IMG/VR virus record: IMGVR_UViG_3300008107_000259
Coordinates: 1 to 41,267 of that record
Length of the DNA stretch: 41,267 nucleotides
Direction: 5' to 3' (one strand)
DNA from: a virus
Lineage: Duplodnaviria; Caudoviricetes
Each line of letters opens with the position of its first letter. Position 1 is the first letter of the stretch. The notes under the pieces were generated by a model. That model was not told the origin of the DNA. It did not search any database and saw nothing but the letters and a program-made list of their open reading frames with translations. A program made the position numbers and the translations under genes. Of this stretch, positions 1 to 41,267 are shown in pieces.

Positions 1-57
1 CACACCGCTTGCTCCTTTTAGGTATCATTTAGGAAGGCAAACCAAACAGGAGGCAAC

Positions 58-414
58 ATGTCTAAAGAAGTAACACTGCCATCAGGGGCAAAAGTAACAT
101 TAAAAGATCCATCAACATTACGCGTAAAAGATCGCAAGAATGTAATGAAGTCTGCGGATAACGCAGTAGGTGGAGATTTAACAAAAGCACTTGCATTAGG
201 TGATGCACTTATTGCCATGCTTGTTGAGTCATGGACATTTGATTTAATTCCGCCATCAGTCAAACTTGAGTCATTAGATGAACTAACAATGGCTGATTAT
301 GATGCTTTGGTAGAACATACAAAAGACGCGCAAAAGTATTTGTTCCCTAATTTAACTGAAACGCCACAGACAGAGGCAGACCCAAAAGCGGGTGGCGAGA
401 ACTCCAACGCCTAA
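58..414 (+). CDS. Tail assembly chaperone (gpG-like)
   Basis: Follows the tail tube gene on the circular map; SD GGAGG; slippery heptamer C-CCA-AAA at 381-387 near its 3' end. Confidence 0.8.
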   Translation: MSKEVTLPSGAKVTLKDPSTLRVKDRKNVMKSADNAVGGDLTKALALGDALIAMLVESWTFDLIPPSVKLESLDELTMADYDALVEHTKDAQKYLFPNLTETPQTEADPKAGGENSNA

Positions 415-611
415 AATGGTTGCTCAAGGGTGGGGAAAGGCATGAAGCCTTTTCCTATCCTGATGAGCATTGGTATTACTACCAAATGGCAGAGCGGTTT
501 GGTTGGACACCTGAACAGGTAGATAACTTGCCCGCTAATACGGCGGATTGGTTAATAGCAATTGCTAGAACCGTTGATGAAGTGAAAACAGAAAGGTTGC
601 AAGATGGCTGA
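381..611 (+). CDS. -1 frameshift extension of the tail assembly chaperone (gpGT-like)
   Basis: The -1 frame is open from CCCAAAA into ORF 420-611; FGWTPEQVDNLP motif typical of gpT regions; the TTG start is TTA in the second copy. Confidence 0.8.
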   Translation, partial: PKSGWRELQRLKWLLKGGERHEAFSYPDEHWYYYQMAERFGWTPEQVDNLPANTADWLIAIARTVDEVKTERLQDG

Positions 612-1077
612 AATTGTTATCAAGAACCTTAAAGATGTTCTCGCCGCTATTGATGGCGCGGCTGAAAAAATTGAACAAGGCGCACAATTAGGAATTATGC
701 GCGTTGGCCTTGCAGTAGAACGCCAGGCAAAATTAAACTTTCAAGGCACACGCAGTTATGAAAAGCGTGTAAGTAAAAAAACTGGCAACCCGTGGTTAAA
801 AATTACTCCACCAAGACATGTTGGCGGATCAGGGCCTAACACTATTACAGGTAATCTCAAACGATCTATTAAAACTACTTACCGTGTTGGCTTAGGTATT
901 TACACCGCTGAAGTTGGGCCAACAATGATTTATGCCCGTCAAGTAGAAAAGGGCGGCGGAAAATGGCCTGCGGGGTTAAAATACCCTTACTTAGAACCTG
1001 CGGCTTTAATGCTATTGCGTAGCGGCAAAATCAACAGGATCTTTACAACCGCTGTTAAAGAGAAATTGGGGAGTTAA
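604..1077 (+). CDS. HK97 gp10-like neck/tail completion protein
   Basis: Motifs TGNLKRSI, YARQVEKG and YPYLEPA. Confidence 0.75.
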   Translation: MAEIVIKNLKDVLAAIDGAAEKIEQGAQLGIMRVGLAVERQAKLNFQGTRSYEKRVSKKTGNPWLKITPPRHVGGSGPNTITGNLKRSIKTTYRVGLGIYTAEVGPTMIYARQVEKGGGKWPAGLKYPYLEPAALMLLRSGKINRIFTTAVKEKLGS

Positions 1078-1079
1078 TC

Positions 1080-4000
1080 ATGGCTGATCTAATCCCCCCA
1101 ATGCTTATTAAATTACAGGCAGATGTAGAAGGTTTAAAATCAGGTTTAGCGCAAGCGGAAAACGCAATCAAAGGCGTAGATAAATCTGTTCAACAGGCTT
1201 CTACTGGCATGACTAATTTTGTTGGCAAGGTAAAACAAATTGGTGCATCTCTTGGTATTGCTTTTGCAGGAACTCAGGTTCTTCAATTTGGTAGAGAAGT
1301 AATACAGCAAGCGCAAGAAGCAGAAGCGCAACAACAGCGTTTGTACCAATTGATGAAGGTTGGTACTGGTGCAACTGATGAACAAATTGCCGCACTTAAT
1401 GCTCAGGCTGATGCTTTACAAAAAGTAGGCGTTGTTACTGCGGGAAACATTACGCAGACACAATCACAGTTGGCAACATTTAATTTGCAGGCTGACACTA
1501 TTGAAAGATTAACGCCTGCCATTCTTGATTATGTCACGGCTGAAAAGGGCGCTAATGCAAGCGCTGATGAATTTAAACAGATGACTAACGGATTGGCACA
1601 AGCGCTTAACGGCAACTTTGGATCTCTTACAAGAGTTGGTTTTGTGCTTGATGAAACTACAAAAAAACAAATTTCATCAGGAACGGAAGCACAACGCTCC
1701 GCCGCTATTGTTGAAGTGCTTAATTCAACATACAAAGATTTTAACAAAGAATTGCGCAATACTCCTGAAGGCCGTATGCAAGTTCTTAGAAATGACTTTG
1801 ATCAATTAAAAGAAGATTTAGGCAAAAAATTATTACCTGCATTAAAAGTTGTAACAGACTTTTTAACTGATCAACTTATTCCAGGGTTACGCACTTTTGG
1901 AACATTTGTTAAAAACAATTCAACGGTTATCATTACATTAACTGGTGCAATTCTAGGAGGTGTTGCCGCTTACAAGGCTTACTTAGCAATTCAAAAATTA
2001 GTAGTTGTTACAACTACTGTTTTAAAAGTTGCGCAAGTTCTTTTTACAGGAGCAACGCTTGCTTCTATTGCTTCTACTAATGGGCTTGCCGCATCAATGC
2101 TTGCACTTAATGCGGCTATGCGAGCAAACCCGATTGGCATCATTGTCACCGCTGTTGCCATGCTTGCTACTGGTTTTGTAGTTGCTTACAAGAAAAGCGA
2201 AACATTTAGAAATGGCGTAGCCGTTGTTGCTAAGGCTGTTATTAGTTATGTAGCCTTTATGATCCGCGCATGGGGTGACATGATTACCATTATTATGAAG
2301 GTAGTCACAGGGCCTCTTAAATTGTTCTTAACCGTTTTATCTAAATTGCCTGGCGTTGGCGGCGCGGCTAAATCAGGTTTAAGCATGATTGACGGCGCTA
2401 TTAAAGGCGTTGGAGATTTTGCTGAAAAAACAGCAACTAAAATTGAAGGCTTAAAAGGCGCTGTAGATAAATTTACTGCCTCCGCAAACAAGTCTGCCAA
2501 AAACGATACAACAAAAGGTAAAGGCGGAGGCGAAGGCGGCGGCGGTGGCGGCGGTAGCGGTAGCGGTGGTGGCCTTACTGACGCACAAAAAAAGAAACTT
2601 GAAGGCTATAAAAAAGATGTAGCAAAAATTTACAAAGACATGAATGAAGTTATTGCTGACTCTCAAGAAAAGGCTCAAGAGGTTCTTGAGGCGCGCAACG
2701 AAAAAATGTTTGAAGCGCACAAGCGTTATGATGAACGCGTTGCTGAACTTAAAAAACGATTTAGAGAAGCAAATGAAGAAGCAGATAAGCGTTTTGAGGA
2801 AGCAAAGGCTGATGCGCAAAAGCGCAGAGATAAGGCTGAAACAGAAGCATACAAGCGTAATAAAGAAACGCTTGAAAACATTGAAAAAGATTATGCTAAC
2901 AAAAAAGCAGATCTTCTTAAAGCCAACAATGACAAACTTGATGACATACGCAAAAGCGCGGCTGAAAAAACCGCCACTTTAACTAAAGCCGCGGCGGAAA
3001 AACAAGCAAACATTATTCAACAGGGCGTAGATCGTTTGCGTAATGCTTTTGCTTCTAAAACTGGTTTTGATGTAGGCGAAGCATTTAAGGGTGGCGCAGA
3101 TAGTGCAGACAAACTTCTTGCTGATCTTAAGGCTAAGTTAGCCGCGGCTAAAGAACTTCAGGCTAATGCGGCGGCTCTCGCTGGCATGGGCTACAGCCAG
3201 GTATTTATTGAGCAAGTTGTTAAAAATGGCCCTGAAGCGGGTAACAAAATTGCAGAGGCTTTAAAAGCCGCATCACCTGAAGCAACAAATGAATTACAAG
3301 AACTTTACTATGGATTAGAAGATGTTTCTGCACATGGGCTAGATACACTTGCTAAGCAAATGAGTACATCTACCAGTTTTGCAACTGAAGAAATGATGAA
3401 CGCATACAACCAAGTTTCTATTGATCTTAAAGAGTCATTGGCTGAAGTCAATACTCAAATGACAGAAGCGTTGGCAGAGTCTAATAAGGCTTATGAAGAA
3501 GCAATGGCTCAAGCCCAAAAAGATCGTAATGAAAAAATTGCTGATGCTAATAAGGCTTTAACAGAAGCGTTGGCTAATGCTAAAGAGGCTTATGATGAAG
3601 CCATAGCGGACGCTACAAAGGCTCTTACAGAGGCTAGAGCGGAAGCGCAAAAAAACTTAACTGAAGGACTTGCGGAAGCAACTAAAGATCTTCAAGAGGC
3701 GCTTGCAGAGGCTCAGAAGGACTATGAAAAGGCTATTGATGACATAAACAAAGCCACAATGAAAAAACTTGCTGACCTTCAAGATAAATTAAAAGAAGTC
3801 GCTGATGCTATGAAGGCTCTTGGTGCGGCTCAAGCGGCTCTTTCTGCAATGCAAAATGCTCCTACTATTGCTAAAAAAGGTGACATTATTCCCGCCGCAG
3901 GTTACGATCCTGCTCGCGCAGGAATGACCGCCAACCCTTACGCTAATTCAAATTTAACTGTTAATAACAACATTACAGCAACTAAAGTTGATCCGTATGA

Positions 4001-4942: not shown

Positions 4943-4952
4943 GGGAGAATAA

Positions 4953-5843: not shown

Positions 5844-7195
5844 TGTCAATGTTGGCTGTTATTTCAGGATCAGGCAGACAAAAACCTAATGCCCCAACAA
5901 TAGGAACTGCAACAAATGTTGGTACTGGACGCGCATACAATAATGGCGCGGCAACAGTTACTTTTACTGCGCCTGCTTACAATGGGCGTTCCGCTATTAC
6001 TTCTTACACGGTTACATCTAGCCCAGGTGGATTTACTGCATCAGGTGCTTCATCACCTTTAACTGTTACAGGGTTGCAATCATCTACTTCTTACACTTTT
6101 ACTGTCACTGCAACAAATGCAATAGGAACATCAAACGCATCATCTGCATCAAACAGTATTACAGCAACAACAGTTCCTCAAGCACCTACAATTGGAACAG
6201 CAACGGCTGGAAACGCAAGCGCAACAGTTACTTACACAGCGGGCGCAACAGGCGGATCTGCAATAACAACATTTACAGCAACTTCATCTCCTGGATCTTT
6301 AACTGGAACAGGTGCAAGCCCAATTACAGTTTCAGGTTTAACCAACGGAACTGCTTATACATTTACAGTTACAGCAACCAACGCTAACGGAACTTCAACG
6401 GCTTCTGCCGCTTCTAACTCTGTAACTCCCGCAATTCCTAAAACTCCTAATGTTGAATACTTTGTTCTTGCTGGTGGAGGACAGGGCGGATACCAATGTG
6501 GAACAAACCCTGGTGGCGGCGGTGGCGCTGGCGGATTATTGACTGGCACAGGTTTAGCGGTTACGGCTGGAACTACTTACACGGTAACGGTAGGCGGTCA
6601 AGGCTCTAACTCAGTATTTTCAAGTATCACTTCAAATGCTGGTGGCCGCGGTGGACAAAATGGTGGAAACGCTGGGCCTGGACAAAATGGTGGTTCAGGA
6701 GGCGGTAACTCAGGTTCAGGTCAAGCATCAGGAACGGGTATTGCAGGACAAGGCAACAACGCTGGTTCAGGTGGTATAGCGGGTGGCGGCGGCGGTAAAG
6801 GTGGCGTTGGTACTTCGGTTAATTATGTGAGTTGTGCATGGCAACCTGGCAATGGTGGTAGCGGTTCTGCATTTTCATTTAGCGGTGCAAGCGTCACATA
6901 CGCAGGTGGCGGTGGTGCTTCAGGATTTAACGGACAACCTCAAGGTTCAGGTGGTAGCGGTATAGGTGGTAACGGTAGCGCTACTGGTAGCGGTGGAAGT
7001 GGAGCGTCTCAAACAGGTTCAGGAGGTGGAGGTAGTGGTTCAGGCGGCCCAGGTTCAGGATCAGGCGGAGTAGTTATGGTTAGATACTCCAATACTTACC
7101 CTGATGCCGCTGCCACTACAGGTTCTCCTTCATTAACAAACACGGGCGGTTACAAAATTTACCGCTGGACTGGAAGCGGGAGCATAACAATCTAA
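5843..7195 (+). CDS. Tail fibre/adhesin with two Fn3 repeats and a glycine-rich domain
   Basis: Two P-x-APTIGTAT...YTFTVTATNA repeats followed by a GGGG-rich C-terminus. Confidence 0.8.
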   Translation: MSMLAVISGSGRQKPNAPTIGTATNVGTGRAYNNGAATVTFTAPAYNGRSAITSYTVTSSPGGFTASGASSPLTVTGLQSSTSYTFTVTATNAIGTSNASSASNSITATTVPQAPTIGTATAGNASATVTYTAGATGGSAITTFTATSSPGSLTGTGASPITVSGLTNGTAYTFTVTATNANGTSTASAASNSVTPAIPKTPNVEYFVLAGGGQGGYQCGTNPGGGGGAGGLLTGTGLAVTAGTTYTVTVGGQGSNSVFSSITSNAGGRGGQNGGNAGPGQNGGSGGGNSGSGQASGTGIAGQGNNAGSGGIAGGGGGKGGVGTSVNYVSCAWQPGNGGSGSAFSFSGASVTYAGGGGASGFNGQPQGSGGSGIGGNGSATGSGGSGASQTGSGGGGSGSGGPGSGSGGVVMVRYSNTYPDAAATTGSPSLTNTGGYKIYRWTGSGSITI

Positions 7196-8300: not shown

Positions 8301-8308
8301 GAGAATGA

Positions 8309-10950: not shown

Positions 10951-11192
10951 AGGAAGTTCTTGATGATCGCCAAAGTGAATACGGAAGCGCTCGCAAAAAC
11001 TTTACAGCCATAGGCCGCATGTGGGGTGCGCTTTTAGACATAGAGGACATTGACCCCGCCATTGTTGCGTTAATGTTTGACGCGGCAAAGTCAGTGCGCA
11101 TCACGGCCAACTTAGAGCATGAAGATAGTTGGATAGACAAAGAAGGCTACACACACCACGGCAAGGAGATCGTGTTTACAAATGAGCCTTGA
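10935..11192 (+). CDS. DUF6378-like protein
   Basis: DRQSEYG...NF..IG..W and HEDSWIDKEGY motifs; start uncertain (10929 or 10935). Confidence 0.65.
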   Translation: MSKGVKEVLDDRQSEYGSARKNFTAIGRMWGALLDIEDIDPAIVALMFDAAKSVRITANLEHEDSWIDKEGYTHHGKEIVFTNEP

Positions 11193-12213
11193 AAAAAGAT
11201 TACAGGACATGCCTGAAGGCATTGAGTCACAAGATGTAAAAGAATTACGCCAAGTAATTTTGCGATTACAAAAACAACTTAAGCAATCTAGAGAACGCAG
11301 TGAAGATTTAGTAGAAGCAACTCACCGCGGCGCTTATGACGCAATGATTGCATTGGGTGCAGTGCCGCCTGTTTCTGCGCCACAAAAAGATACGCGCAAA
11401 ATAAATGCTGAAGTTGCTTTAATTCACACAACGGATTGGCAAGGCGCAAAAGTTACAACCAGTTACAACAGCGAAATTATGCGGGATCGCGTGATGCAAT
11501 TTTCTGAAAAAGTTGTACACCTGACTGATCTGCAACGCCATCATCACCCTGTAAAAGAATGTGTAGTGATGTTTGGCGGTGACATGGTTGAAGGTTTGTT
11601 TAACTATCCTGCGCAGTTATGGCAGATAGATGCTTCACTCTTTGGCCAATTCACCACTGTTTCAAGGCTTTGCGTGGATTTTGTGCGCACAATGTTGGCT
11701 AACTTTGAAAAGGTCACAGTGATTGCAGAGTGGGGAAATCACGGGCGCATTGGTGGCAAGCGCGCAGAAGTACCTAAATCTGACAATGTGGATCGCATGG
11801 TTTATGAAATGAGCCGCCAAATCCTTGCAGGGGAAAAGCGTTTAACCTGGGAGGATTGTCCAGAGGACATTCAAGAAGTTGAGATTGGTAATTACCGCGC
11901 CCTGCTTATGCATGGTGATGAATTAGGCCGTTCAGGATTTGCAAGCCCTGCGGCATGGATTGCAGGCGCTAACCGTTGGAAAGCGGGCGCACATGATTAC
12001 GATTTCCACGACATTTTCTTAGGTCACTATCACCGACATGCACAAGAGCCAATTCAAAAGCACTACAACATTTATTGGACAGGTTCAACAGAGTCAGATA
12101 ACCGTTATGCCCGTGACTCAATGGCCGCTAGTGGCAGACCGTCACAGCGTTTGCACTTTGTAGATCCAATTAAGGGCAGAACTACAGCCCAGTATCAAGT
12201 TTGGTTGGATTGA
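11182..12213 (+). CDS. Calcineurin-like metallophosphoesterase
   Basis: TDWQ, GGD, GNH, HGD and GHYH motifs; N-terminal coiled coil. Confidence 0.85.
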   Translation: MSLEKRLQDMPEGIESQDVKELRQVILRLQKQLKQSRERSEDLVEATHRGAYDAMIALGAVPPVSAPQKDTRKINAEVALIHTTDWQGAKVTTSYNSEIMRDRVMQFSEKVVHLTDLQRHHHPVKECVVMFGGDMVEGLFNYPAQLWQIDASLFGQFTTVSRLCVDFVRTMLANFEKVTVIAEWGNHGRIGGKRAEVPKSDNVDRMVYEMSRQILAGEKRLTWEDCPEDIQEVEIGNYRALLMHGDELGRSGFASPAAWIAGANRWKAGAHDYDFHDIFLGHYHRHAQEPIQKHYNIYWTGSTESDNRYARDSMAASGRPSQRLHFVDPIKGRTTAQYQVWLD

Positions 12214-12674
12214 TGGCGCTTGAACCAATCAGAGAAGTATTAAGCGACAATGCAAAAGAGCGCGCAATGGCGGCGTTCTTACAAGAGGCTATGAAATGGG
12301 AACTTTTCCCAACCCCTAAATTTTATTTTACTGATTTCCACATCTTGCAACTGTATGACAATGGGCGCAAGAACTACATTGGTGATCTTGAAATTAAATG
12401 GTTGAACATACCTAGCAATGTTCCCGCAATTTTCCCGTTCAATAAATTACAACAAATGATGATTGCCCCACCGTACACAGATAGCCCTAACTCATTTCAT
12501 AGGATCTGTTTTAGATTTACTGATGGTGTTTTGATGTTGCCTGTAAAGGAATTGGCCCGTTTGCACCCTGAAGTACACACGCGGCGCGATACTAATGAAA
12601 CGGATTTAGTTGTAAAAGTTTCTGTTTCTGATTACACAAAATACTTCAAACCGATTGTTATTGCTGAGCCTTAA
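12213..12674 (+). CDS. PD-(D/E)xK nuclease-like protein
   Basis: TDF...DLEIK motif; TGATG coupling to the upstream gene. Confidence 0.5.
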   Translation: MALEPIREVLSDNAKERAMAAFLQEAMKWELFPTPKFYFTDFHILQLYDNGRKNYIGDLEIKWLNIPSNVPAIFPFNKLQQMMIAPPYTDSPNSFHRICFRFTDGVLMLPVKELARLHPEVHTRRDTNETDLVVKVSVSDYTKYFKPIVIAEP

Positions 12675-13900: not shown

Positions 13901-14151
13901 GTAACAAGGAAAACAAATTTGAACCATCAAACGGATTAAAGGTTGCAGTTCATTTCAACATTATTGCAATCCGCGCAGTAGCCCAGGAGTTAGACATTTT
14001 CCCTGAAGTGTTGGCTGAGAAGTTAGACAGAGCGGGATTTATGCTTACCCCTGATCCGTTTAACATCTCGTCAGATGCAGGCAAAGTAATCGTGTTGCAG
14101 AACAAGCGCGAGAACTCAAACATCAGTTTGGTTAAAGATAATGATGAGTGA
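13897..14151 (+). CDS. Hypothetical protein
   Basis: ATGA overlap with the upstream gene. Confidence 0.6.
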   Translation: MSNKENKFEPSNGLKVAVHFNIIAIRAVAQELDIFPEVLAEKLDRAGFMLTPDPFNISSDAGKVIVLQNKRENSNISLVKDNDE

Positions 14152-14512
14152 AATTGTTACACCCGCAATGGTGGAACAAAAATTACGCGGGCTCTCTAAA
14201 GAAGTTGATGAAGCGCACAAAGCGTTAATTGAAACAGAAACCAGTTATCACACAATCAAAGCAGATTATGAGATAGCAATGGCTAAATCCCGCATGACTT
14301 ACGCAACCAAATCAGCGCCCACTGGTAAGAACTACACCGTGGGAGAGCGTGAGGACATGGCGCTTATTGAAAATGAAGAATTGCATAAGAGCCTGGCTAT
14401 TGTACAAGCGCGTGTTTTGGCATCACGGGCCAATACAAATAGATTAAAAACTCAAGTTGAAATTGCTAGATCCGTAGGCACATCAGTGCGTACAAGTATG
14501 GATCTAACATGA
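14141..14512 (+). CDS. Coiled-coil protein (possibly UvsY-like mediator)
   Basis: All-helical heptad pattern within the recombination cluster; function is a guess. Confidence 0.45.
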   Translation: MMSEIVTPAMVEQKLRGLSKEVDEAHKALIETETSYHTIKADYEIAMAKSRMTYATKSAPTGKNYTVGEREDMALIENEELHKSLAIVQARVLASRANTNRLKTQVEIARSVGTSVRTSMDLT

Positions 14513-14685
14513 TTACTTTTGCGATTGGTTTAGTTATAGGCGTTTTTATTGGTTATTGGGCTTACCCGTTGTACATGGCAGTTAAGTTGTACAGAATAAG
14601 AAAAAGAATAGAACAGATAGAAAAAGATTTTATGGTTTTAAAAGAAGATTTGCATGGCAAACAATGGAATGAGGATAATTTGTGA
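14509..14685 (+). CDS. Small membrane-anchored protein (58 aa, not in ORF track)
   Basis: MITFAIGLVIGVFIGYWAYP TM segment; ATGA and GTGA overlaps with both neighbours. Confidence 0.7.
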   Translation: MITFAIGLVIGVFIGYWAYPLYMAVKLYRIRKRIEQIEKDFMVLKEDLHGKQWNEDNL

Positions 14686-26150: not shown

Positions 26151-26162
26151 AAAGGGAGAATA

Positions 26163-26492: not shown

Positions 26493-26935
26493 TGGCAGTT
26501 TCAATTACACCTAACCCAAATGTACAGGGCCCACAAGGTACAACTGGTGCGCAAGGAGTGCAGGGCGTTCAAGGAACAACAGGTTTACAAGGTACGCAAG
26601 GTATTCAAGGACTTTTAGGTACTGCTTATTCAGCAACTTTTAATCCGCAAACAACTGCATACACACTTTTATCATCTGATAGAAATGTGTGGGTAACTAT
26701 GAACAGCGCTACTTCTCAAACAATCACTGTTCCACCTAGTGTATTTACAAGCGGTCAATTAATTTATGTTCAGCGTATTGGCGCAGGAGCAGTTCCTATT
26801 GCACAAGGCGCTGGTGTAACAATTACATCAAATGCGGCTACTTCTTCAGCGCCTACTTTGCGCGCTCAATTTAGTTCAGCAACAATTCTTTGTACTGGAA
26901 CAAATACATTTACAGTTGTTGGTGACATTGCTTAA
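26492..26935 (+). CDS. Short collagen protein with a VVGD-type C-terminal domain
   Basis: About 10 Gly-X-Y triplets; C-terminal domain aligns with the C-terminus of 4953-5843. Confidence 0.7.
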   Translation: MAVSITPNPNVQGPQGTTGAQGVQGVQGTTGLQGTQGIQGLLGTAYSATFNPQTTAYTLLSSDRNVWVTMNSATSQTITVPPSVFTSGQLIYVQRIGAGAVPIAQGAGVTITSNAATSSAPTLRAQFSSATILCTGTNTFTVVGDIA

Positions 26936-27606
26936 CGCACCCACAACATACCTACATCTGCGGTAGGGCGCAGGTTGGCTACTTTCCAACCGCCGTCAAT
27001 CCAATCATCAGATGTAAGTTGATGCCAGGCTAATAATTGGTTGGTGTTGTTTACTCTTAGATCAAACCATTCATCAGGTTGTTCTAAATGACTAACAATG
27101 TATTGAGGCGCTACTTCTCTGTAACCCAATGTGAACAAATAATCTAATTGATCTTCATGCTGGTGCATGGTTTCAAATGTCCACTCAAAACAAATTGTTC
27201 CCCCGTAATGGCGGGTCATGCCTTTCATTACCTGCCACTCTGCACCTTCAACATCAATCTTGATTAAGTCAGGGTTGCCGTAAAACTCACATAATGTATC
27301 AAGGGTGATCGTTGAAACCTCACACTCTCTGTAAGGTTTGCCCTGGTATGGCATGCCGTCTTTGGTGAGCCAATCTTTGTTGAGCGTACTAAGCCCATCT
27401 TCATCTGCCTCATAGAACTTTAAGCGCTCGCCATCTTTATCGCTCACAGCCATTTTAAGAGGCACAACATTAGGGTTGTAAATAAAGTTATTAACCAACT
27501 GCGCATAAACGCGTGGAGCGGCTTCTAAGGCTATTACACGGTATCCCTGAGCCAACCCTGCAAGCACTGCATCACCACGGTTAGCGCCAACATCAAAAAG
27601 CAACAT
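26932..27606 (-). CDS. FkbM-family SAM-dependent methyltransferase
   Basis: FDVGANRG, TITLD and LIKIDVEGAE motifs. Confidence 0.9.
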   Translation of the reverse strand: MLLFDVGANRGDAVLAGLAQGYRVIALEAAPRVYAQLVNNFIYNPNVVPLKMAVSDKDGERLKFYEADEDGLSTLNKDWLTKDGMPYQGKPYRECEVSTITLDTLCEFYGNPDLIKIDVEGAEWQVMKGMTRHYGGTICFEWTFETMHQHEDQLDYLFTLGYREVAPQYIVSHLEQPDEWFDLRVNNTNQLLAWHQLTSDDWIDGGWKVANLRPTADVGMLWVR

Positions 27607-28156
27607 GTGTAAGCCTTCCTAAATTGCTTTTAACAGCAACTTCATAATCATGGGTTAATTTCATGCCGTCTAACTTATGTAACAATTCAAGACTTTCTTC
27701 TTTGCGCCCAATCCACCAGGCGCTTACTGCCTTCTCAAACAAAAGCACATACTTGCCTTCATACCCCACATCAACAGGAAGCGGTGAATTAAGTTGGTTG
27801 TGCAATCCAATGTTGGCCCAGGTGTAACACTCTTGCCATTGGCCTAAACGCTCATGGAACTGCGCTAGTAAGAAATAACCTTCAGGGCGGTATGGCAAAT
27901 ACGCAACAGCCTGCAATAAACAATTGCTTACAGTTGCCTGGCGGTCATTTTGATCATCAAAACAGTGCGCGGCTTTGAGAAGTGAGGCATAAACCAGGGT
28001 TGGGTGTGACTCATGACCGTATTCAGCGGTGCGCAAATAGAAAGAAACCGCTGATGCTGTTTGGTTTTGCTTCTCATACTCCACGGCTACATCAAAATTA
28101 AGCGTTGGATTAAATGGATCTTTGGATAGTTCTACAACTAACTGCTCAATTTTCAT
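27593..28156 (-). CDS. TPR-repeat protein
   Basis: Helical repeats, e.g. AVAYLPYRPEGYFLLAQFHERLGQWQECY. Confidence 0.7.
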   Translation of the reverse strand: MKIEQLVVELSKDPFNPTLNFDVAVEYEKQNQTASAVSFYLRTAEYGHESHPTLVYASLLKAAHCFDDQNDRQATVSNCLLQAVAYLPYRPEGYFLLAQFHERLGQWQECYTWANIGLHNQLNSPLPVDVGYEGKYVLLFEKAVSAWWIGRKEESLELLHKLDGMKLTHDYEVAVKSNLGRLTHVAF

Positions 28157-29147
28157 AAGCAAGGGCCTCCATAATTAAATCCTCAACTACCAATTTAGGT
28201 ACTTCAAGAACAAATGCGGCGTTATCCTGGAAACCAAAAGACACCAAAAGGTTACCTTTGTGAACCGCCGCCCCTACACAGAATTCAACGCGAGCATCTA
28301 AGAACGAGAATTCCTTACTTAGCCCCACAACATTTAGTTCCTGATCCCACACAACTAAGCGGTGACGGTAAATTGCATCTTTTTGATTTAAGTAATTCTT
28401 AAACAGATCTACCTCATGGGTAATGGAGATGTACATGTTGCCCCACCGTATGACCTGGCTAGATCCGCGCTGATCTTTTGGCGGTATGGCTGTTGGCTTA
28501 ACAAATACTTGTTCACACTCCCCACTAATAGGGCTGGCATAAACTAATTCTGTTGGCATTGTCCATTTGATGAAGTGGTACGGCTTATCAAGGACGGGTA
28601 TCCAATTCTTCTCACAATAAGAAGTATCAGGGGCGGGCGCTTTGATACGCACACGCCTAACCTCTTTGACCGCCCAGTTATCCCAGTCAATCTCAATGCG
28701 ACTGTACTCCATGCGGCCTACACCGTTGGTTGTGGTGTCACGGCGAACTCCCATAAGGTAATAATCATCTAACCACTGCACTACGCGGCAATCTTCTTCA
28801 CCTACAAACTCCCAAATAGGCTCAACATCTAATTCAGATGTATCCACTTTGGCGTGGTGAGTCATCTCAAGATCATCATTGAGGCGGCATAAGTAATTAA
28901 CAGTTACTAAGCGTTGATCCTTTTCAGGGTGCAAGTATGACAATGGCCCAAAACGGCTAGGGAACTTTTGTTCATTTTCTGCATGGTACAGCGTGTAATT
29001 TACATGGCGTAAATTCACAAGAATGTTGCCTTTGTCATCAATGAAGATTGACGGGTTCATTAACCCAGTGCCGCTAGTAAGCCCGTGAGGAATTACCAAT
29101 GGCGCTAATTTGCCTCCGTGATGAACTGCCTTCTCTACTAAGTTCAT
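28146..29147 (-). CDS. GH130-like five-bladed beta-propeller glycoside hydrolase/phosphorylase
   Basis: NPS, EDCR, EKNW, RGS, YRH and EF...G.QD motifs; probable leaderless start at 29147 (TATTGT 7 nt upstream). Confidence 0.7.
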   Translation of the reverse strand: MNLVEKAVHHGGKLAPLVIPHGLTSGTGLMNPSIFIDDKGNILVNLRHVNYTLYHAENEQKFPSRFGPLSYLHPEKDQRLVTVNYLCRLNDDLEMTHHAKVDTSELDVEPIWEFVGEEDCRVVQWLDDYYLMGVRRDTTTNGVGRMEYSRIEIDWDNWAVKEVRRVRIKAPAPDTSYCEKNWIPVLDKPYHFIKWTMPTELVYASPISGECEQVFVKPTAIPPKDQRGSSQVIRWGNMYISITHEVDLFKNYLNQKDAIYRHRLVVWDQELNVVGLSKEFSFLDARVEFCVGAAVHKGNLLVSFGFQDNAAFVLEVPKLVVEDLIMEALAYEN

Positions 29148-29229
29148 AACCCTTACAATACATGAACTGGCGGAAATCGCTATCATTGCAACACGCCTGA
29201 TTTACAAGGGGCATAACAAGGGAGATACA

Positions 29230-30921
29230 ATGGGTCGTGTCCGTGACCGTATCGCAAGAGCAATCGCAACTGGCAACATTGAAAAAGGGCCTAACCTACC
29301 TGTAGGTGCTACAACAATTGGCACTCAAGATTTACTCAATGGGTTGCAAATGCAACAACAGTACGGAAACACAACCGCACTCCCACGCGCACCATTTAGC
29401 GCAACAGTTCCTTTTGGCCCAGGTATGCCAATTCTTCCTGGTGCAATTAACCCAATCAATCCTGAGACTGGCCGCCCTGAGCCGCGTAAGTATGAGTATC
29501 AAGTTGCTCAGAACATCAACATCACTGAAACAAAACTTGTACCGTTTAAAACATTACGAGCAAGCGCTGACGCAATTGACATTCTGCGCCGTTGCATTGA
29601 AGTAACTAAATCAAAAATGAACAACCTTGAGTTTGACATTGTTCTTGGTGCAGACGCATCAGAAAAGATTTCGGCAGAAGCAGGCGGCGATCATGTGCGC
29701 GCTATGGCTAAGGCCCGTGAAAAGTACACAGATGAAATTAACCGCTTGCGTGAGTTTTGGGAAAACCCTGATCCTGCAAATGGATTTACATGGAACGATT
29801 GGCTCAACATTGCTGTTGAAGATGTTTTAGTTATTGACGCATTGGCCATTTATCCTCAGCCAACAGTAGGCGGAGATCTTTACGGTTTCCAAATTCTTGA
29901 TGGCTCAACAATCAAGCCGCTCATTGATGAAATTTCTGTTTATGGATTTAGCCCAGTAGAGCGAGCGCTACCACTTGCTGACATTTATTTGCGCCGCCAA
30001 CAATGGATCAGAGCAGAGTACACAGATGGTGTAATGCCTGAACTCATGTTTACAACTGATGAAGATTGGGGAACTAACCCTGATCTCTTGCTTGCTTATG
30101 AGCGTATCCTCAATGACGATCTTGCAGGACAAACAGAACAGCGCAAGCGCGCTCGCCTATTGCCAAAGGGCCTTTCACCTATTGTTAATGAAGGTTATGG
30201 CGAAAAGTTTAAAGACACACTTGATGATTACCTCATCACTTCTATTTGCGGACACTTTGGCGTTCAACCATCTGAAATTGGTTTCTCTCCAAAGGGCGGA
30301 TTAGGTGGAGCAGGGTTTGCAGATGGCCAGGCAGAAAACGCAGAAGCGTTAGGCGTTGGCCCACTTGCTAGTTGGATCTCACAACAGATTACAAACCTTT
30401 CTTATACATACTTAGGTATGCCACGCGAACTTGAATTTAAGTTAATGATTTCAAAGCGTTTGGACAATGAAGAAAACGCCCGTAAGAATGAGATTGAAGT
30501 TCGCTCAGGCGGTAAGTCAATCAATGAGCGCAGATCAGAACTTGGTTTACCGTTGCTTGATACACCTCAAGCAGACATGCCAATTTTGGTTGCAGGCTCA
30601 AGCGTTTTATTGTTCTCACCTGATGGGTTAATTGATGCGGCTAGTGCGGCAACTGCCCCTACTTTAAGCGGGCCTGATGCAACACCTGATGCGCCTACAA
30701 CGCCTAATCCTTTAGATCAGACTCCTGTAACTGAAGAAGATCCCAGTGAAGCAGAAGCAACTGAAGTAAAAGCGTTTATGAAATGGGCGGCTAAGGGTAA
30801 GCGCGCAAGATTATTTGAATTCAAATCACTTGATCCAATTGTGGGAGATGCGCTCAACCGTTGTGCTTTTGATGGTGATTTAGATACTGCGCGAGCGCTG
30901 GCTAAGGCTTATTTAACATGA
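29230..30921 (+). CDS. Portal protein (possible internal deletion)
   Basis: ILRRCIE, YGFSP and ICGHFGVQPSEIG motifs, SINERRSELGLP; upstream of MuF, protease and capsid. Confidence 0.85.
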   Translation: MGRVRDRIARAIATGNIEKGPNLPVGATTIGTQDLLNGLQMQQQYGNTTALPRAPFSATVPFGPGMPILPGAINPINPETGRPEPRKYEYQVAQNINITETKLVPFKTLRASADAIDILRRCIEVTKSKMNNLEFDIVLGADASEKISAEAGGDHVRAMAKAREKYTDEINRLREFWENPDPANGFTWNDWLNIAVEDVLVIDALAIYPQPTVGGDLYGFQILDGSTIKPLIDEISVYGFSPVERALPLADIYLRRQQWIRAEYTDGVMPELMFTTDEDWGTNPDLLLAYERILNDDLAGQTEQRKRARLLPKGLSPIVNEGYGEKFKDTLDDYLITSICGHFGVQPSEIGFSPKGGLGGAGFADGQAENAEALGVGPLASWISQQITNLSYTYLGMPRELEFKLMISKRLDNEENARKNEIEVRSGGKSINERRSELGLPLLDTPQADMPILVAGSSVLLFSPDGLIDAASAATAPTLSGPDATPDAPTTPNPLDQTPVTEEDPSEAEATEVKAFMKWAAKGKRARLFEFKSLDPIVGDALNRCAFDGDLDTARALAKAYLT

Positions 30922-33266
30922 TTGAGGGCGCTCTCAAGGCAGATGGGCGCTTAGCGGCAAAGAACGCAGTGAAGATTAGGGCGGCACTGCACCAGGTAAC
31001 AGACTTCAAAAGAGTCTTTAGCAAATACCAGGAAACAATGCCTCAGCCTACAAATAACCCTACACAGGATCGTGTGCGCGCTCGTTCATGGGTTTTGCTT
31101 AATGTGTACCTCAATGATGAACCGTTGCGTAATGCTGTTACCCGCGCCTGGAAAGAGGCTTTTGTTTTGGGTGATGTTGCCGCGCAAGAATGGTTAGGAA
31201 AAGCGCGTGAAGCAAAAAAGGCTGATGACATTGAAATTAATTGGGATACCTGGAAACCTGGTGATGTTGATACGGCAATCAACATTAAGAATTTTCAAGC
31301 GTATTTAACAAAGGTAAACGCTGATAGTTATTTCAAAAAGTTTAACAAAGAAACTATTGTAAATTTAGGCACTGCATTATCTGACTCAATTGCCACGGGT
31401 TTAGATGCTGAAAGCGCCGCAATAATGATTGGGCGGCATGTGGCAAGCCCTAGCCGCGCCCTAACTATTGCAATCACTGAGCAAAACCGCGCTATGTCGT
31501 TTTCATCTATTGAGCGTTACAAAGAGGCTGGCCTGGCAAAAATGGAATGGGCTGTATCTGATCCGTGTGACATTTGCGCAAAGAATGATGGGCAAGTAAT
31601 TACTATTGGACAAACATTTGCATCAGGTGACGCGCAACCTCCTGCTCACCCACATTGCCGTTGCGTGTTGCTACCTGTAATTCCTGGAATGGAAGATGAG
31701 CCTGAGTTGCCAGGTACAACAATGGTTGTTCCTCCTTCTCCTGTTGATTTTGGCCCTGATGCCACAACTTTCAGAACACCTAAAGAAGAAATTGAACAAG
31801 TGGTTGCGGCTCTACAAGAGGGCCGTTCATTAAATGAAGCATTAGACATGTATGAAGCATTAGATGCGCGCCCTTATGTTCCTGGACAATGGGAAATTTT
31901 GCCTCAATCTTTGAATAGACAAGCCGCAATAAGTGCTTTAGGCAGAGCCTTAATTTTCCCTATGCCTAGAGAACAAATTGAAAGAACATTTTTTGGTTCT
32001 AGGATTAAAAAAGCAGACAAATTATTTATTGAAAAAGCCGTTATCTATAAAAACGGCCCATTAGAAGTTCAATTTTCTAGTACAGGTTTGAAATTAACTG
32101 AAGCAGAACGCAAATTAGTTATTAAAGAAGTAGAAAAGTTACAAGCAACAAACCCTAAAACACGGGCTGTTGTACACATTGAGAAAGATGCTAGTGGTAA
32201 GTATGGTTGGGCTTACGGCGGCAAGTCAGATTTGTGGGTTGTTCCTAAGATTGTTGCGCAACCTGATCTAAAAGTTTCTGCACAAGGCGCTTACAAGATG
32301 CCTGTAACTCCCGCTACTACGCAATTTGAATACACCATTGCACATGAATGGGGTCATTTGATTGATGACATCACACAAGGAACTCAAAACGCTCAACGCA
32401 CAAATGCAATTAGACGGCTTAAAGCGGAATACCCTAATGCTTTTAAGAGCGGGTACTCAGCGGAAAATAGCAAGGAATTCTTTGCTGAAATGTTTACAGA
32501 GTATTACAGGACTAATGGCCAAACTTCTAACTTGCTTGTACAGGCTATGGCTAAAGAATTTGGTTGGAAAGTTCCTGAAATTGCAGGGCCTAAAATTGGT
32601 TATGTGGCGGCTAAAAAACCTGCCAGTTATTTCACGCCTGAAAAGGCTTTGCAACTAGAAGAAGGCGTACCGTGGCGGCCTGAAGGTGAGAACTTGTATC
32701 TTAAAAAGGTACTTGATGAACAAGGATTTAATGGCAAGCCTAAAGTTGTTTCAGCGGCAGAATTTAAGAAAGCCGTGGACTCAGGAGCAATGCCTTTGCA
32801 TAGAGGTGTTGCAGGAGATACCCCTGAGCAAGTAGATCAATTTGTGGCTCAATTGCTTACAGGGGATACTCCTTATGTTGGGCGTGGAATGTTTGGTGAT
32901 GGTACTTACTTCACCGACAAACCTTCAACAGCACTTAAATTTGCTAAAGAGGACAGGTTTGGAAACCCAATTGAATTTGGTAGAACCATAGAAGCGGCTT
33001 TAGATCCACGGGCAAAAATTGCGTTTTTAGATGACATAAAAGAAGAATTTATGAGTACAACAAGAATGACCCAGGCTCAAAAAGATTTCTATTATTCCTA
33101 TCCACAAGATTTTTATGAAGATGCAAGTATGTGGGCCGCGTCTAATGGTTATGACGCTATTTTGGTTAGAAACCCAGTAGTGAATTGGCAATCACAAGAA
33201 GCATTACCTGATTTGTACACAATTGTTTTGAACAGAACAGCCCTAATCATTAAGGAGATGCCATGA
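30918..33266 (+). CDS. MuF (SPP1 gp7-like) head protein fused to zincin-like and ART-like domains
   Basis: CDIC...PPAHPHCRC MuF motif; HEWGH...EFFAE; LHRG...GRGMFGDGTYF...GYDAI. Confidence 0.85.
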   Translation: MIEGALKADGRLAAKNAVKIRAALHQVTDFKRVFSKYQETMPQPTNNPTQDRVRARSWVLLNVYLNDEPLRNAVTRAWKEAFVLGDVAAQEWLGKAREAKKADDIEINWDTWKPGDVDTAINIKNFQAYLTKVNADSYFKKFNKETIVNLGTALSDSIATGLDAESAAIMIGRHVASPSRALTIAITEQNRAMSFSSIERYKEAGLAKMEWAVSDPCDICAKNDGQVITIGQTFASGDAQPPAHPHCRCVLLPVIPGMEDEPELPGTTMVVPPSPVDFGPDATTFRTPKEEIEQVVAALQEGRSLNEALDMYEALDARPYVPGQWEILPQSLNRQAAISALGRALIFPMPREQIERTFFGSRIKKADKLFIEKAVIYKNGPLEVQFSSTGLKLTEAERKLVIKEVEKLQATNPKTRAVVHIEKDASGKYGWAYGGKSDLWVVPKIVAQPDLKVSAQGAYKMPVTPATTQFEYTIAHEWGHLIDDITQGTQNAQRTNAIRRLKAEYPNAFKSGYSAENSKEFFAEMFTEYYRTNGQTSNLLVQAMAKEFGWKVPEIAGPKIGYVAAKKPASYFTPEKALQLEEGVPWRPEGENLYLKKVLDEQGFNGKPKVVSAAEFKKAVDSGAMPLHRGVAGDTPEQVDQFVAQLLTGDTPYVGRGMFGDGTYFTDKPSTALKFAKEDRFGNPIEFGRTIEAALDPRAKIAFLDDIKEEFMSTTRMTQAQKDFYYSYPQDFYEDASMWAASNGYDAILVRNPVVNWQSQEALPDLYTIVLNRTALIIKEMP

Positions 33267-33472
33267 CAGAGGTAGAGGTAAGCCGTAAAGTGGGCGTACT
33301 TGTTGCGTATCTTGATCAGGAGGCTATTGAAGGATTGTTTGCGGCGCTTAAAAAAAGCACTTCTTATGAAACATTACAAGAGCCATACAAAACATGGCTT
33401 ACGGATCACTCAGCAATACCAACAAAAGATTTACGGACAAACGCAAAAAAGGCAAGAAAGGCAAAGGCATAA
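33263..33472 (+). CDS. Small protein, candidate immunity protein
   Basis: ATGA-coupled to the toxin-like C-terminus of MuF; SD AAGGAG. Confidence 0.5.
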   Translation: MTEVEVSRKVGVLVAYLDQEAIEGLFAALKKSTSYETLQEPYKTWLTDHSAIPTKDLRTNAKKARKAKA

Positions 33473-33475
33473 ATT

Positions 33476-34159
33476 ATGAAAACTGAAAGTTGTGATCCAC
33501 CTAGAGATGTTGATTGGTCAGAAGCCTCAAGCCTAGAAGTGGTTTTAAGCGCGCAAGAAAACATACCTGGCGCTAAGGCTGAATTGGCGCGCAGAGAAAA
33601 AGAAGCGCAAGAGTTAGACAAGAGCGCAGACATTGAAAAGGGCAACCCTAACCGTGACTCTAAAGGCCGTTTTACTTTTGGAGCAGGTGGCCCGCAAGGT
33701 GGCGGCGCTGGTGGTGCGGGTGCGGCAGAAGCAGAAGCGGCAGGAGAGGCTGAGCCGTATGAGGAAACAGATAGTTACCGCATGCGCCATTCAGCCCCTA
33801 GACGGGCTGATGAATTTGGATCACCTGCAACTGATGTTGAAGAAATGATGCCAGGTTTTTATGAAAATCCTAATCTGTATGGATCAGGTTATGCTCAAGC
33901 GGACAAAGAAAGCCGTTCTGCAATTATGGCAATTAGAGGAAAACCTAATGCGCCTGTAACTATTTACAGAGCCGTACCTGAAGGCGTAAACAAAATTAAC
34001 CCTGGTGATTGGGTAACGCTTTCTCCTACTTACGCTAAAGAACATGGGCGCAGTAATGTATCTAGTGGGTTTGATGTGTTAAGCAAAGTGATCCCCGCCA
34101 AAAATTTATGGTTTAACGGTGACAGTATCAATGAGTTTGGCTATGATCCAACAGATTAA
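33476..34159 (+). CDS. Putative ADP-ribosyltransferase-fold protein with an RDxxGRF motif
   Basis: NPNRDSKGRF plus Gly/Ala linker; IYRAVP...PGDWVTLS..YA..H...GDSINEF (R-S/T-E pattern). Confidence 0.55.
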   Translation: MKTESCDPPRDVDWSEASSLEVVLSAQENIPGAKAELARREKEAQELDKSADIEKGNPNRDSKGRFTFGAGGPQGGGAGGAGAAEAEAAGEAEPYEETDSYRMRHSAPRRADEFGSPATDVEEMMPGFYENPNLYGSGYAQADKESRSAIMAIRGKPNAPVTIYRAVPEGVNKINPGDWVTLSPTYAKEHGRSNVSSGFDVLSKVIPAKNLWFNGDSINEFGYDPTD

Positions 34160-35955: not shown

Positions 35956-37641
35956 ATGGCACTTACACCTCCAAAGGTGGCCGATCTATTCAGTGATGCA
36001 ACTCCAAAGGAAGCGGCAGAACGCTTTGAGGAATTCTCTAGTGAACTCACTAAGTCTCTCTCACATGCTTCTCATGTTCCAGGACAAGCACCACAAGCAG
36101 ATCCACTCTCAGCACTTGAAGCACTAGCGGCTAACAAGTCATTAACAGGAGACGCGGCGGCAGGACTTAACACTGCTCTAGCGGCTCAGCGCATGGCAAT
36201 GCAGGACATTCAGAAGGAAATCACAACTACTTCTCCATTGTCCACATCATTTGCGGCGTTTGACCTTGAAGCACCTGCGAAGTTGCTTACACCACGCCCA
36301 ACTCCACTCCGTAACCGTATTCCCCGTAAAAAGGGTGTTGGTACTTCACACCGTGTAAAGCGTATTCTTGGTTACACAGGTACAGGTACAGGCGGACAAG
36401 GACAGATTTGGCCTGGTATTACAGAAACTACTCAGAACAACTTTGCACCAGGAGCATCTAACCCGTTCTACTTAGAGCGCGGCCCACAGATCTCCTATAC
36501 CGCAGATGATCTGATCTTGCCTTACAACTCATACTCACTATCTGATCAGGTTTCATTTGATGCAAACTTCTCAGGTATGGGCTATGAGGATCTACGCCAG
36601 TTGTCATCAACTTCTACTCTTTACGCAACAATGCTTATGGAAGAACGCATGATGCTAATGGCTCGCGGAACAGCATCAGGGTACTCAGGTACTCTCGCCG
36701 CTCCAACATTTACACTTGCTTCACCTGTTGCCTCAGGGTCACAGACAGCACTTGCTAACACAACTTACTATGTGAATGTCACAACTGACGCAGGTATTTC
36801 TGCGAACGGTTTTGGTGAGTCAATTCTTGGTACAGAGGCAAACACAGCCGTTGCATCAGGTGATGTTCTAACAGTCACCGTTACAACTCCTGTTGTTGGC
36901 GCACTTGGTTACAACATCTATGTTGGAACAGCAACAGGTGCGGCTAACCTCACATACCAGGGAACACTCAAGGGAACTGGCACATTCACAATCCAGGGCG
37001 CAACTGCATCAGGTTTAACTGGTAACAACGCGGCCTACACAACAACTGGTGCGGCGGCTTCACGCGCAACATCAAACACATCTGCTTACGCAACTGGTTA
37101 TGACGGAATTCTTCCTACAGTTCTAGGCCCTAACACTGGCTTCAACAACGCAATCAACAGCACATTCTCAACATCTAACCCAGGTGCAGAATTCCAGACT
37201 GTTTTTGCTAACTTGTACCAGAATGTAAAGGCTGATCCTGATGTTGTATTGATGAACGGAAATGATCGCAAGCAACTCTCTGATGCAATCAAGAGCGGCT
37301 CAACAGCGAACTACCGTTTGGTTATCAACAACCCAGGTGAGAGCGGTACAACATACGGCTCAATTGTTACAGGACTTCAGAACGAAGTTACAGGTAAGGC
37401 AGTGGATCTTATGGTTCACCCGTGGTTGAACTCAGGTGTTGCACCTGTTCTTTCATGGACACTACCAATTCCTGATACACAGGTTTCTGATGTATGGGCG
37501 AACTTCTTGGTACAGGACTACATGGGTATCCAGTGGCCAGTAACACAGTTCACTTATGACTTCTCAACCTACTTCCGCGGAACATTCTTCTGCACCGCTC
37601 CTGCATGGAATGGCGCAGTTTCAGGTATCGTTTCAGCGTAA
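35956..37641 (+). CDS. Major capsid protein with Ig/Fn3-like insertion
   Basis: Follows the protease; strong SD GAAAGGA; TPLRNRIPR motif; followed by a strong hairpin. Confidence 0.85.
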   Translation: MALTPPKVADLFSDATPKEAAERFEEFSSELTKSLSHASHVPGQAPQADPLSALEALAANKSLTGDAAAGLNTALAAQRMAMQDIQKEITTTSPLSTSFAAFDLEAPAKLLTPRPTPLRNRIPRKKGVGTSHRVKRILGYTGTGTGGQGQIWPGITETTQNNFAPGASNPFYLERGPQISYTADDLILPYNSYSLSDQVSFDANFSGMGYEDLRQLSSTSTLYATMLMEERMMLMARGTASGYSGTLAAPTFTLASPVASGSQTALANTTYYVNVTTDAGISANGFGESILGTEANTAVASGDVLTVTVTTPVVGALGYNIYVGTATGAANLTYQGTLKGTGTFTIQGATASGLTGNNAAYTTTGAAASRATSNTSAYATGYDGILPTVLGPNTGFNNAINSTFSTSNPGAEFQTVFANLYQNVKADPDVVLMNGNDRKQLSDAIKSGSTANYRLVINNPGESGTTYGSIVTGLQNEVTGKAVDLMVHPWLNSGVAPVLSWTLPIPDTQVSDVWANFLVQDYMGIQWPVTQFTYDFSTYFRGTFFCTAPAWNGAVSGIVSA

Positions 37642-37657
37642 GTTAAAACTTAATAAC

Positions 37658-37698
37658 GGGAGGGGCGCGGCACATTTGAAAAGCCGCGCCCCTTTCCC
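37658..37698 (+). terminator. GC-rich hairpin after the capsid gene
   Basis: AGGGGCGCGGC/GCCGCGCCCCT 11-bp stem; weak U tract. Confidence 0.65.
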
Positions 37699-37716
37699 AA
37701 TTTACTAGGAGGCAAA

Positions 37717-37992: not shown

Positions 37993-37994
37993 CA

Positions 37995-39391: not shown

Positions 39392-39396
39392 GGAGC

Positions 39397-39531
39397 ATGA
39401 TGAAGTATAAATACAATGGAACAGAAGAACGCGTGTTCCCTAGCATTGGGATCACTGTAAAACCTGGTGACGAATTTGACGCACCTGAAGGATTTGATGC
39501 TGCCGCGTCAGACAAGAAACTAGGAGAGTGA
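39397..39531 (+). CDS. 44-aa protein (not in ORF track)
   Basis: SD AAGGAG; YNGTEERVFPSIGITVKPGDEFDAP; fills the gap before the tail tube gene. Confidence 0.65.
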   Translation: MMKYKYNGTEERVFPSIGITVKPGDEFDAPEGFDAAASDKKLGE

Positions 39532-39535
39532 CCAC

Positions 39536-40522: not shown

Positions 40523-40530
40523 AGTAGATC

Positions 40531-40628
40531 AGGGCGGCGGTGTGGTTGAGGGCGATTGCCTTCCCGCTCTCCCACACCGCTTGCTCCTTTTAGGTATCAT
40601 TTAGGAAGGCAAACCAAACAGGAGGCAA
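40531..40628 (+). other. Long hairpin whose loop is complementary to downstream sequence (terminator or structured leader)
   Basis: About 20-bp stem across 40532-40586; loop TTGCCTTCC is the reverse complement of GGAAGGCAA at 40604-40612. Confidence 0.6.
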
Positions 40629-40629
40629 C

Positions 40630-40986
40630 ATGTCTAAAGAAGTAACGCTCCCATCAGGAGCAAAAGTAACTCTCAAAGATCCATCAACCCTGCGCGTAAA
40701 AGATCGCAAAAATGTTATGCGCAGTGCAGACAATGCAGTTGGTGGAGATCTTACAAAAGCGCTTGCATTAGGTGATGCGCTTATTGCCATGCTTGTAGAG
40801 TCATGGACATTTGATTTAATTCCACCATCAGTCAAACTTGAGTCATTAGATGAATTAACAATGGCTGATTATGATGCTTTGGTAGAACATACAAAAGACG
40901 CGCAAAAGTATCTGTTCCCTAACCTGGCTGAAACGCCACAGACAGAGGCAGACCCAAAAGCAATTGGCGAGAACTCCAACGCCTAA
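40630..40986 (+). CDS. Tail assembly chaperone, second allele
   Basis: Three amino acid differences from 58-414. Confidence 0.8.
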   Translation: MSKEVTLPSGAKVTLKDPSTLRVKDRKNVMRSADNAVGGDLTKALALGDALIAMLVESWTFDLIPPSVKLESLDELTMADYDALVEHTKDAQKYLFPNLAETPQTEADPKAIGENSNA

Positions 40987-41183
40987 AATGGTTACTCAAG
41001 GGTGGGGAAAGGCATGAATACTTTTCCTTTCCTGATGAGCATTGGTATTACTACCAAATGGCAGAGCGGTTTGGTTGGACACCTGAACAGGTAGATAACT
41101 TGCCCGCTAGTACGGCAGATTGGTTGATAGCAATTGCTAGAACCGTAGATGAGGTGAAAACAGAAAGGTTACAAGATGGCTGA
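40953..41183 (+). CDS. -1 frameshift extension, second allele
   Basis: CCCAAAA conserved at 40953-40959; -1 frame open. Confidence 0.75.
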   Translation, partial: PKSNWRELQRLKWLLKGGERHEYFSFPDEHWYYYQMAERFGWTPEQVDNLPASTADWLIAIARTVDEVKTERLQDG

Positions 41184-41267
41184 AATTGTTATCAAAAACC
41201 TTAAAGAAGTTCTTGCCGCAATTGATGGATCTGCGACAAAGATAGAACAAGGCGCACAAATAGGAAT
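41176..41267 (+). CDS. HK97 gp10-like protein, second allele (truncated by window end)
   Basis: MAEIVIKNLKEVLAAIDG..., homologous to 604-695. Confidence 0.75.
   Translation, partial: MAEIVIKNLKEVLAAIDGSATKIEQGAQIG

Follow-up and report, generated by a model that had tools for sequence, protein, structure and literature searches.

The genome and its missing word

The stretch of DNA analysed here, which we call the window, is the whole IMG/VR record IMGVR_UViG_3300008107_000259, a tailed-phage genome of 41,267 bases with 44% GC in which the four-base palindrome ATAT does not occur. Pfam and PHROGs recognise genes for terminase, portal, tail tube, WhiB, SSB, RusA, HNH and Cas4-like proteins. 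A Pfam scan of the 56 open reading frames found neither an integrase nor a DNA methyltransferase, the sole methyltransferase being of the FkbM type; an earlier inspection of the letters (the sequence-only reading) had likewise recognised no DNA methylase. From its gene content the phage appears to be non-temperate and to lack a DNA methylase of its own. The ends of the window overlap by 695 bases (1-695 and 40573-41267), both copies being free of ATAT; since the overlap is 91.7% identical, with 58 differences, the ends are probably derived from different variants in the population. No close cultured relative was found, the best capsid match being 25% and the best terminase match 51%.

The sequence-only reading had claimed that ATAT is missing from the whole genome, and the counts bear this out. 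The number of copies expected is 249 from base composition, 149-150 from a first-order Markov model and 72 from a maximal-order Markov model (z -10.3). When the codons of 53 genes were shuffled 200 times with the proteins and the codon usage kept fixed, the mean was 144.7 copies and the minimum 122, so the observed count of zero is nowhere near expectation. Every 10-kb block of the window is empty (32-41 expected), and so is each of the 16 flank contexts of NATATN (4-28 expected). The 12 words which differ from ATAT by one letter are normal, with ratios of observed to expected copies (O/E) of 0.77-1.62, and gapped AT-N-AT is normal as well; the purged word, as read from the footprint in the phage, is therefore exactly the palindrome ATAT, four letters wide.

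Codon choice bends around the word, as had been noticed before. Ahead of ATN, aspartate is written GAC 47 times and GAT never (128 and 429 elsewhere), and asparagine AAC 35 times and AAT never (251 and 282 elsewhere); after a codon ending in A, tyrosine is TAC 63 times and TAT never (177 and 184 elsewhere). The sequence-only reading was mistaken in calling TATA common: it is rare, with 25 copies against 128 expected (19 against 115 within genes). We rejected TATA as a second purged word. Outside ATAT contexts its O/E is 0.35 in the window, 0.42-1.06 in kin and 0.44-0.55 in hosts, and its scarcity mostly reflects the ban on ATAT together with a shortage that kin and hosts have in common. If an O/E below 0.1 with more than 15 copies expected is taken as the mark of restriction avoidance, ATAT stands at 0 against 145-150; the codon shuffles, the normal neighbouring words and the silent losses relative to kin show that the loss is specific to the word rather than a matter of base or codon composition. 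The purge works like restriction-site avoidance and has the testable features of that family.

The window has lost other words together with ATAT. AGCT, ACGT, CCGG and TCGA are absent (0 each) and GCWGC is found only at the two sites listed in Table 1, all in agreement with the sequence-only reading. Out of 136 four-letter words 5 are purged in all; ATAT alone is without an enzyme, the other four being known type II sites. The minimal absent 5-mers are eight: GGATG, CGATG, CCTCG, CGWCG, GCACG, GAWTC, GGWCC and GGGAC. For known sites we used the emboss release 404 of REBASE as in Biopython (1,088 enzymes, 618 sites), counting a site as testable when at least 8 copies were expected. An O/E below 0.1 was found for 67 of the 467 testable sites, many nested in one another, and they include those of FokI, TfiI, AvaII, Hpy99I, BsmFI, NlaIV, HincII, StyI, BsmI, EarI, PstI and BglI. 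The non-palindromic companions are absent from both strands. Six further words are purged without a match in REBASE 404 (observed/expected): GCACG 0/67, CCTCG 0/29, CCGAA 2/48, GACCA 3/60, CAGCAG 0/28 and CTGCTA 0/21. These may be further undescribed specificities.

No degenerate REBASE 404 site of five letters or fewer covers ATAT. EcoRV (GATATC), NdeI (CATATG) and SspI (AATATT) cut six-base sites with an ATAT core, and these sites are absent from the window. The union of known six-cutters was rejected as the cause, because it covers 3 of the 16 flank contexts (CATAT adds a few) and all 16 are empty.

Table 1. Positions of features in the window
Feature	Positions	Strand	Basis or remark
Whole tailed-phage genome	1-41267		Without ATAT, AGCT, ACGT, CCGG, TCGA
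Exonuclease/metallophosphoesterase	11182-12213	+	Allele follows clade, yet also in ATAT-bearing contig L084
PD-(D/E)XK nuclease (PDDEXK_14-like)	12201-12674	+	Tried as the phage's own ATAT cutter, rejected
WhiB-like regulator, marker of an Actinomycetota host	15287-15700	+	Pfam PF02467, E 6e-13; PHROGs; available text of PMC10202952
Cassette: FkbM methyltransferase, TPR protein, unknown protein	26932-29186	-	Clade-wide
Probable major capsid protein	35956-37641	+	25% to annotated major head protein; used for collecting relatives and for the tree
GCWGC site, first of only two (about 121 expected)	7109-7113		Word count
GCWGC site, second of two	39499-39503		Word count

The reverse-strand cassette had been described as an accessory element, clean of ATAT and long resident. 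It is clean (0 against 10.7 expected), and since it is common to the whole clade, with 89-95% protein identity in its largest gene, it is long-resident; the idea of a recent accessory does not hold. A long collagen-like tail fibre adjoins the cassette (23271-29186 for the two together), which is retained throughout the clade and may modify the fibre. Positions 30918-34159 encode a MuF-type head protein with an HExxH metallopeptidase-like match (Pfam ATLF) and a C-terminus that varies among kin; a domain of the gene after it is fused to MuF in G017, G020 and G024. This region looks like a polymorphic effector module.

ATAT among relatives of the phage

Relatives were collected as 80 capsid-defined IMG/VR loci, together with near-whole genomes with up to 40 kb each. 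Among the 80 loci the number with a zero count is 17 for ATAT, 60 for AGCT, 71 for ACGT, 44 for CCGG, 34 for TCGA, 7 for GATC and 8 for TTAA. ATAT is purged in some kin (observed/expected: G006 0/144, G009 0/147, G019 0/139, G008 10/144, G022 2/47, G041 0/45) and kept in others (G016 82/179, G012 136/231, G017 36/103). The identity of these genomes to the window is about 82% over aligned DNA. Four genomes at this level of identity have no copy where 579 are expected, and the intergenic DNA of four ATAT-free genomes has none against 16.9. All 10 copies of G008 lie within 13931-15553, a single tail module of 1.6 kb, which is what a recent import would give. The route of the loss can be followed by comparison with G016: 52 of its ATAT sites fall in codons aligned to the window, where none is kept and 33 were lost silently; six control words in the same alignment are kept at 40-71%.

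On the capsid tree (FastTree, 86 rows) the ATAT-free state is found in 23 rows and needs 8 changes, where shuffles average 20.1; branches supported at 95 or above force at least 6 of them. It should be noted that gains and losses are indistinguishable on this tree and that recombination may add changes. The state occurs in the clade of the window (with reversals) and also, separately from it, in L063 and in L047/L078/L079. Except for ATAT, which they retain, sister groups have the same set of purged words (the purge barcode), and other capsid lineages purge GATC, TTAA, AATT, TGCA, GGCC, GTAC or GCGC instead. Four-base type IIP sites are purged on and off by lineage within this phage family in the same way as ATAT. 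When loci were gathered with the endolysin and with the cassette gene, the ATAT O/E was below 0.1 in 40 of 79 and in 32 of 80 of them, some of the contigs having been counted already.

Methylases carried by the phages were rejected as an explanation for the kin that keep ATAT: PF01555 is found in just 3 of 42 records, one of which is nearly ATAT-free, and only one more methylase, of the C5 type, turned up when 27 relatives were scanned for motifs. Lone DNA methylases do occur sporadically, in G008 (L167, G008:346-1611), in G007 and G018, and in G019; they comprise a beta-class enzyme, a ParB-like fusion and a short one, which we take to be a T1-type Dam. The purge pattern is not relaxed in G008 and G019. 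A capsid lineage with 52% GC (L034, L038, L042, L054) has purged TTAA, AATT and ACGT and kept ATAT, AGCT and TCGA; G013, a member of the lineage purging TTAA, AATT and ACGT, has a C5 methylase. A different phage type which shares the PD-(D/E)XK gene (L103-L156) has purged AGCT, CCGG, TCGA, GATC and CATG, and mostly GGCC and CGCG; its ATAT is at normal levels.

Candidate hosts and recorded specificities

The WhiB gene and the capsid relatives (50-53%) that occur in genomes of Actinacidiphila and Actinocrinis indicate a host among the Actinomycetota. Capsid matches were found in five GTDB genomes: the two soil Actinomycetota just mentioned, two freshwater Actinomycetota bins and one Polynucleobacter bin, the last probably misbinned. 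Sequence related to the window comes mostly from freshwater sequencing runs, and these hold relatives only, with a share of 0.40 at most. When 96 and 86 candidate hosts were searched at the DNA level, nearly all matches were collagen-repeat noise, the exception being a single phage-like stretch in bin G002. Freshwater actinophages which carry WhiB, including the Planktophila phages E7 and F5, are also about 40 kb with 44% GC (PMC10202952); they differ from the window in that no sigma-70 gene was recognised here, and the available text of that paper does not report motif purging.

The chromosomes of candidate hosts are not purged of ATAT. In a family of complete, rhodopsin-bearing Actinomycetes genomes of 1.35-1.50 Mb (G263), which we presume to be Nanopelagicaceae, there are 1,353 copies against 1,212 expected (O/E 1.12; 360 kb, 11 genomes). 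In six small genomes of the genus Rhodoluna and its order there are 722 against 1,096 (O/E 0.66; 452 kb), and AATATC is present in 498-1,321 copies in each of five candidate-host genomes. The equal depletion of phage and host that a mutational bias would give is therefore not seen.

Host methylase and nuclease loci were inspected for at most the best 30 matches per search. The methylases of the G263 family are patchy, those above cut-off being 20 of 251 for PF02086, 22 of 251 for PF01555, 45 of 221 for PF00145 and 23 of 171 for PF07669. Their neighbours belong to the HpaII, DpnII, MutH/Sau3AI, HinP1I, Eco47II, LlaMI, BglII, NotI, EcoRV, BpuJI and MvaI families. Candidate hosts thus have many nuclease-methylase pairs, HpaII-family (CCGG) enzymes among them; specificity cannot be read from the genes. 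Nor can it be read from the word content of a cassette, for the controls were inconsistent (a DpnII cassette has 8 GATC against 13 expected). The genus Rhodoluna has PF00145 in 26 of 151 genomes and two conserved lone adenine methylases, PF01555 in 121 and PF02086 in 80 of the 151, which may be MseI-like and Sse9I-like. DNA of this genus (L422-L481) is low in TTAA (0.38) and GTAC (0.51), with ATAT at 0.77. Three host candidates for an ATAT system were rejected. An EcoRV-like gene (L302) retains the GSGNT recognition loop of EcoRV, and its sole viral match lies among bacterial-looking genes; no viral relative was found for the PDDEXK_11 nucleases beside Dam-like methylases; and G054, with ATAT at 0.60, has no PF01555 or PF02086 match, only a type I-like methylase.

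REBASE 404 has enzymes for 14 of the 16 four-base palindromes and none for ATAT and TATA, the only two left. The same two words are described as without a known enzyme (PMC3724700) and tabulated as added palindromes with no enzyme (PMC4687349), as far as the available parts of these papers go. As a whole word ATAT is absent from the supplements of PMC6286503, PMC8919816, PMC9516812 and PMC4752239, control words being found in the first and the last, and no ATAT motif appears in the available parts of PMC6329791 and bioRxiv 10.64898/2026.06.24.734251. Full-text literature gave no ATAT enzyme, within a coverage that lacks the complete list of REBASE methylases and the greater part of the subscription literature. 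The nearest record is methylation of CATAT in Campylobacter jejuni (PMC12679398, available text). With nothing specific for ATAT in REBASE 404, a REBASE-derived site table or the methylome supplements searched, the specificity is probably new and without a described enzyme.

What may have removed ATAT

We consider it fairly probable that the cause is an undescribed type IIP restriction-modification system of the host directed against ATAT. Some strains of a freshwater actinomycetotal host would carry an enzyme cutting unmethylated ATAT, and a partner adenine methylase would shield the sites of the host itself; the mark would have to be N6-methyladenine (m6A), because ATAT contains no cytosine. 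A single cut would kill an incoming genome, so that each ATAT site would be selected out of the phage, mostly through silent codon changes. If the system sits in a variable defence island, host chromosomes would retain ATAT, and phage lineages moving to host populations without it would regain the word. The suggestion of the sequence-only reading that the host lineage may have a poorly characterised defence specificity is supported, albeit indirectly. The Planktophila defence island has type I and II enzymes, Dcm and DarT (PMC12817590, available text).

Site avoidance in virulent double-stranded DNA phages offers the closest parallel. In the available part of the survey PMC6286503 short, mostly palindromic words are eliminated (ratio below 0.1, more than 15 expected) from phages in which, as in the window, no integrase is recognised, and elimination is almost exclusive to orthodox type II sites, to which the companions of ATAT also belong. 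AluI (AGCT), HpyCH4IV/MaeII (ACGT), HpaII/MspI (CCGG), TaqI (TCGA), MseI (TTAA) and MluCI/Sse9I (AATT) have four-base palindromes as sites too. That survey tests known sites only, AGCT, TTAA and AATT being present in its supplements and ATAT and TATA not; the window differs from it in that a purged word has no known enzyme and in the extreme number of purged sites.

Several points weigh against a host ATAT system. To our knowledge decades of enzyme screening have given no ATAT cutter. In the host loci inspected, the best 30 per search, we identified neither an enzyme nor a methylase for ATAT. Among the D12-type matches in the presumed Nanopelagicaceae GATC systems are the most frequent, and the window keeps GATC (201 copies), so that the species sampled are probably not its host; composition disagrees on the host as well, dinucleotides pointing to low-GC Actinomycetales and trinucleotides to the presumed Nanopelagicaceae. 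A mild background shortage of ATAT exists, the closer kin that keep the word having O/E values of 0.35-0.79. Lake Biwa acI genome bins gave no methylated motif and no methylase, according to the available text of PMC6329791.

This background shortage, the generally low counts of words containing TA and the value of 0.66 in Luna-type hosts are what could be said for a mutational or compositional bias. A bias would hardly empty a genome of 145-150 copies while neighbouring words stay normal and sister lineages of the same GC retain ATAT, and an assembly artefact would not recur in dozens of independently assembled contigs; both are refuted. For a nuclease of the phage itself, self-protected by having no sites, one can cite the PD-(D/E)XK, HNH, Cas4-like, RusA and exonuclease genes of the genome and its lack of a DNA methylase. 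The distribution of these genes goes against it. The PD-(D/E)XK gene was not found in 40 kb each of the ATAT-free G006 and G019, is present in G020, G024 and G025 despite 94-112 ATAT, and is 95% identical in contig L084, which with an adjacent exonuclease at 96.5% has 7 ATAT in 5,538 bases; HNH and RusA of the ATAT-keeping G016 are 91-94% identical to those of the window. None of the gene clusters is restricted to lineages free of ATAT, although for the other purged lineages the genomes are incomplete. The PD-(D/E)XK, exonuclease, HNH and RusA genes are thereby rejected, and a cutter of the phage's own, very improbable by now, is largely refuted. Improbable too, if less so, is a lone ATAT nuclease of a rival phage which makes co-infecting phages in the same host lose the word: no such phage was among the loci fetched, and the numerous other words purged along with ATAT correspond to enzymes of host type.

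Since ATAT is its own reverse complement, strand cannot separate selection on DNA from selection on RNA by a toxin-type endoribonuclease cutting AUAU. We nevertheless give this little credence, because intergenic DNA is clean as well, non-palindromic companions are missing from both strands, and a complete purge needs single sites to be nearly lethal, which would fit a DNA break better. The strongest competitor, still rather unlikely, is another DNA-level defence of the host that reads ATAT, either a lone adenine methylase which marks the phage so that a modification-dependent nuclease of the next host destroys it, or a DarT-like or PabI-like base-excision enzyme acting on the word. It can draw on the two conserved lone m6A methylases of Rhodoluna and the capsid lineage that purges TTAA and AATT, on the Mrr, GmrSD and AspBHI families of modification-dependent nucleases in candidate hosts, and on the presence of DarT in the Planktophila defence island (available text of PMC12817590). 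On the other side, type IIM and IV sites are only weakly avoided in the available part of PMC6286503, a perfect palindrome is the kind of site that a dimer binding both DNA strands would read, and the chromosomal shortage that accompanies a lone methylase, as for TTAA in Rhodoluna, is unseen for ATAT in the hosts sampled.

Returning to the host restriction-modification system, a broader proposal, to which we give about even chances, is that freshwater Actinomycetota carry a common and old four-base ATAT enzyme with its m6A methylase, responsible for at least 3 separate purges in one phage family, and that the purge barcode of each lineage is a readable record of the pan-restriction repertoire of its hosts, undescribed specificities such as GCACG and CCTCG included. 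For the hunt for an ATAT cutter the footprint gives a place, the defence islands of the abundant Actinomycetota of lakes, and a sign, m6A in ATAT in long-read data from lakes. Such an enzyme, if it exists, would provide a new reagent for work on AT-rich DNA, and purge barcodes could group uncultured phages by host. The finding also bears on the biology of streamlined lake bacteria: these are regarded as poor in defences, yet the pattern suggests a strong restriction pressure that they exert at the level of the population.

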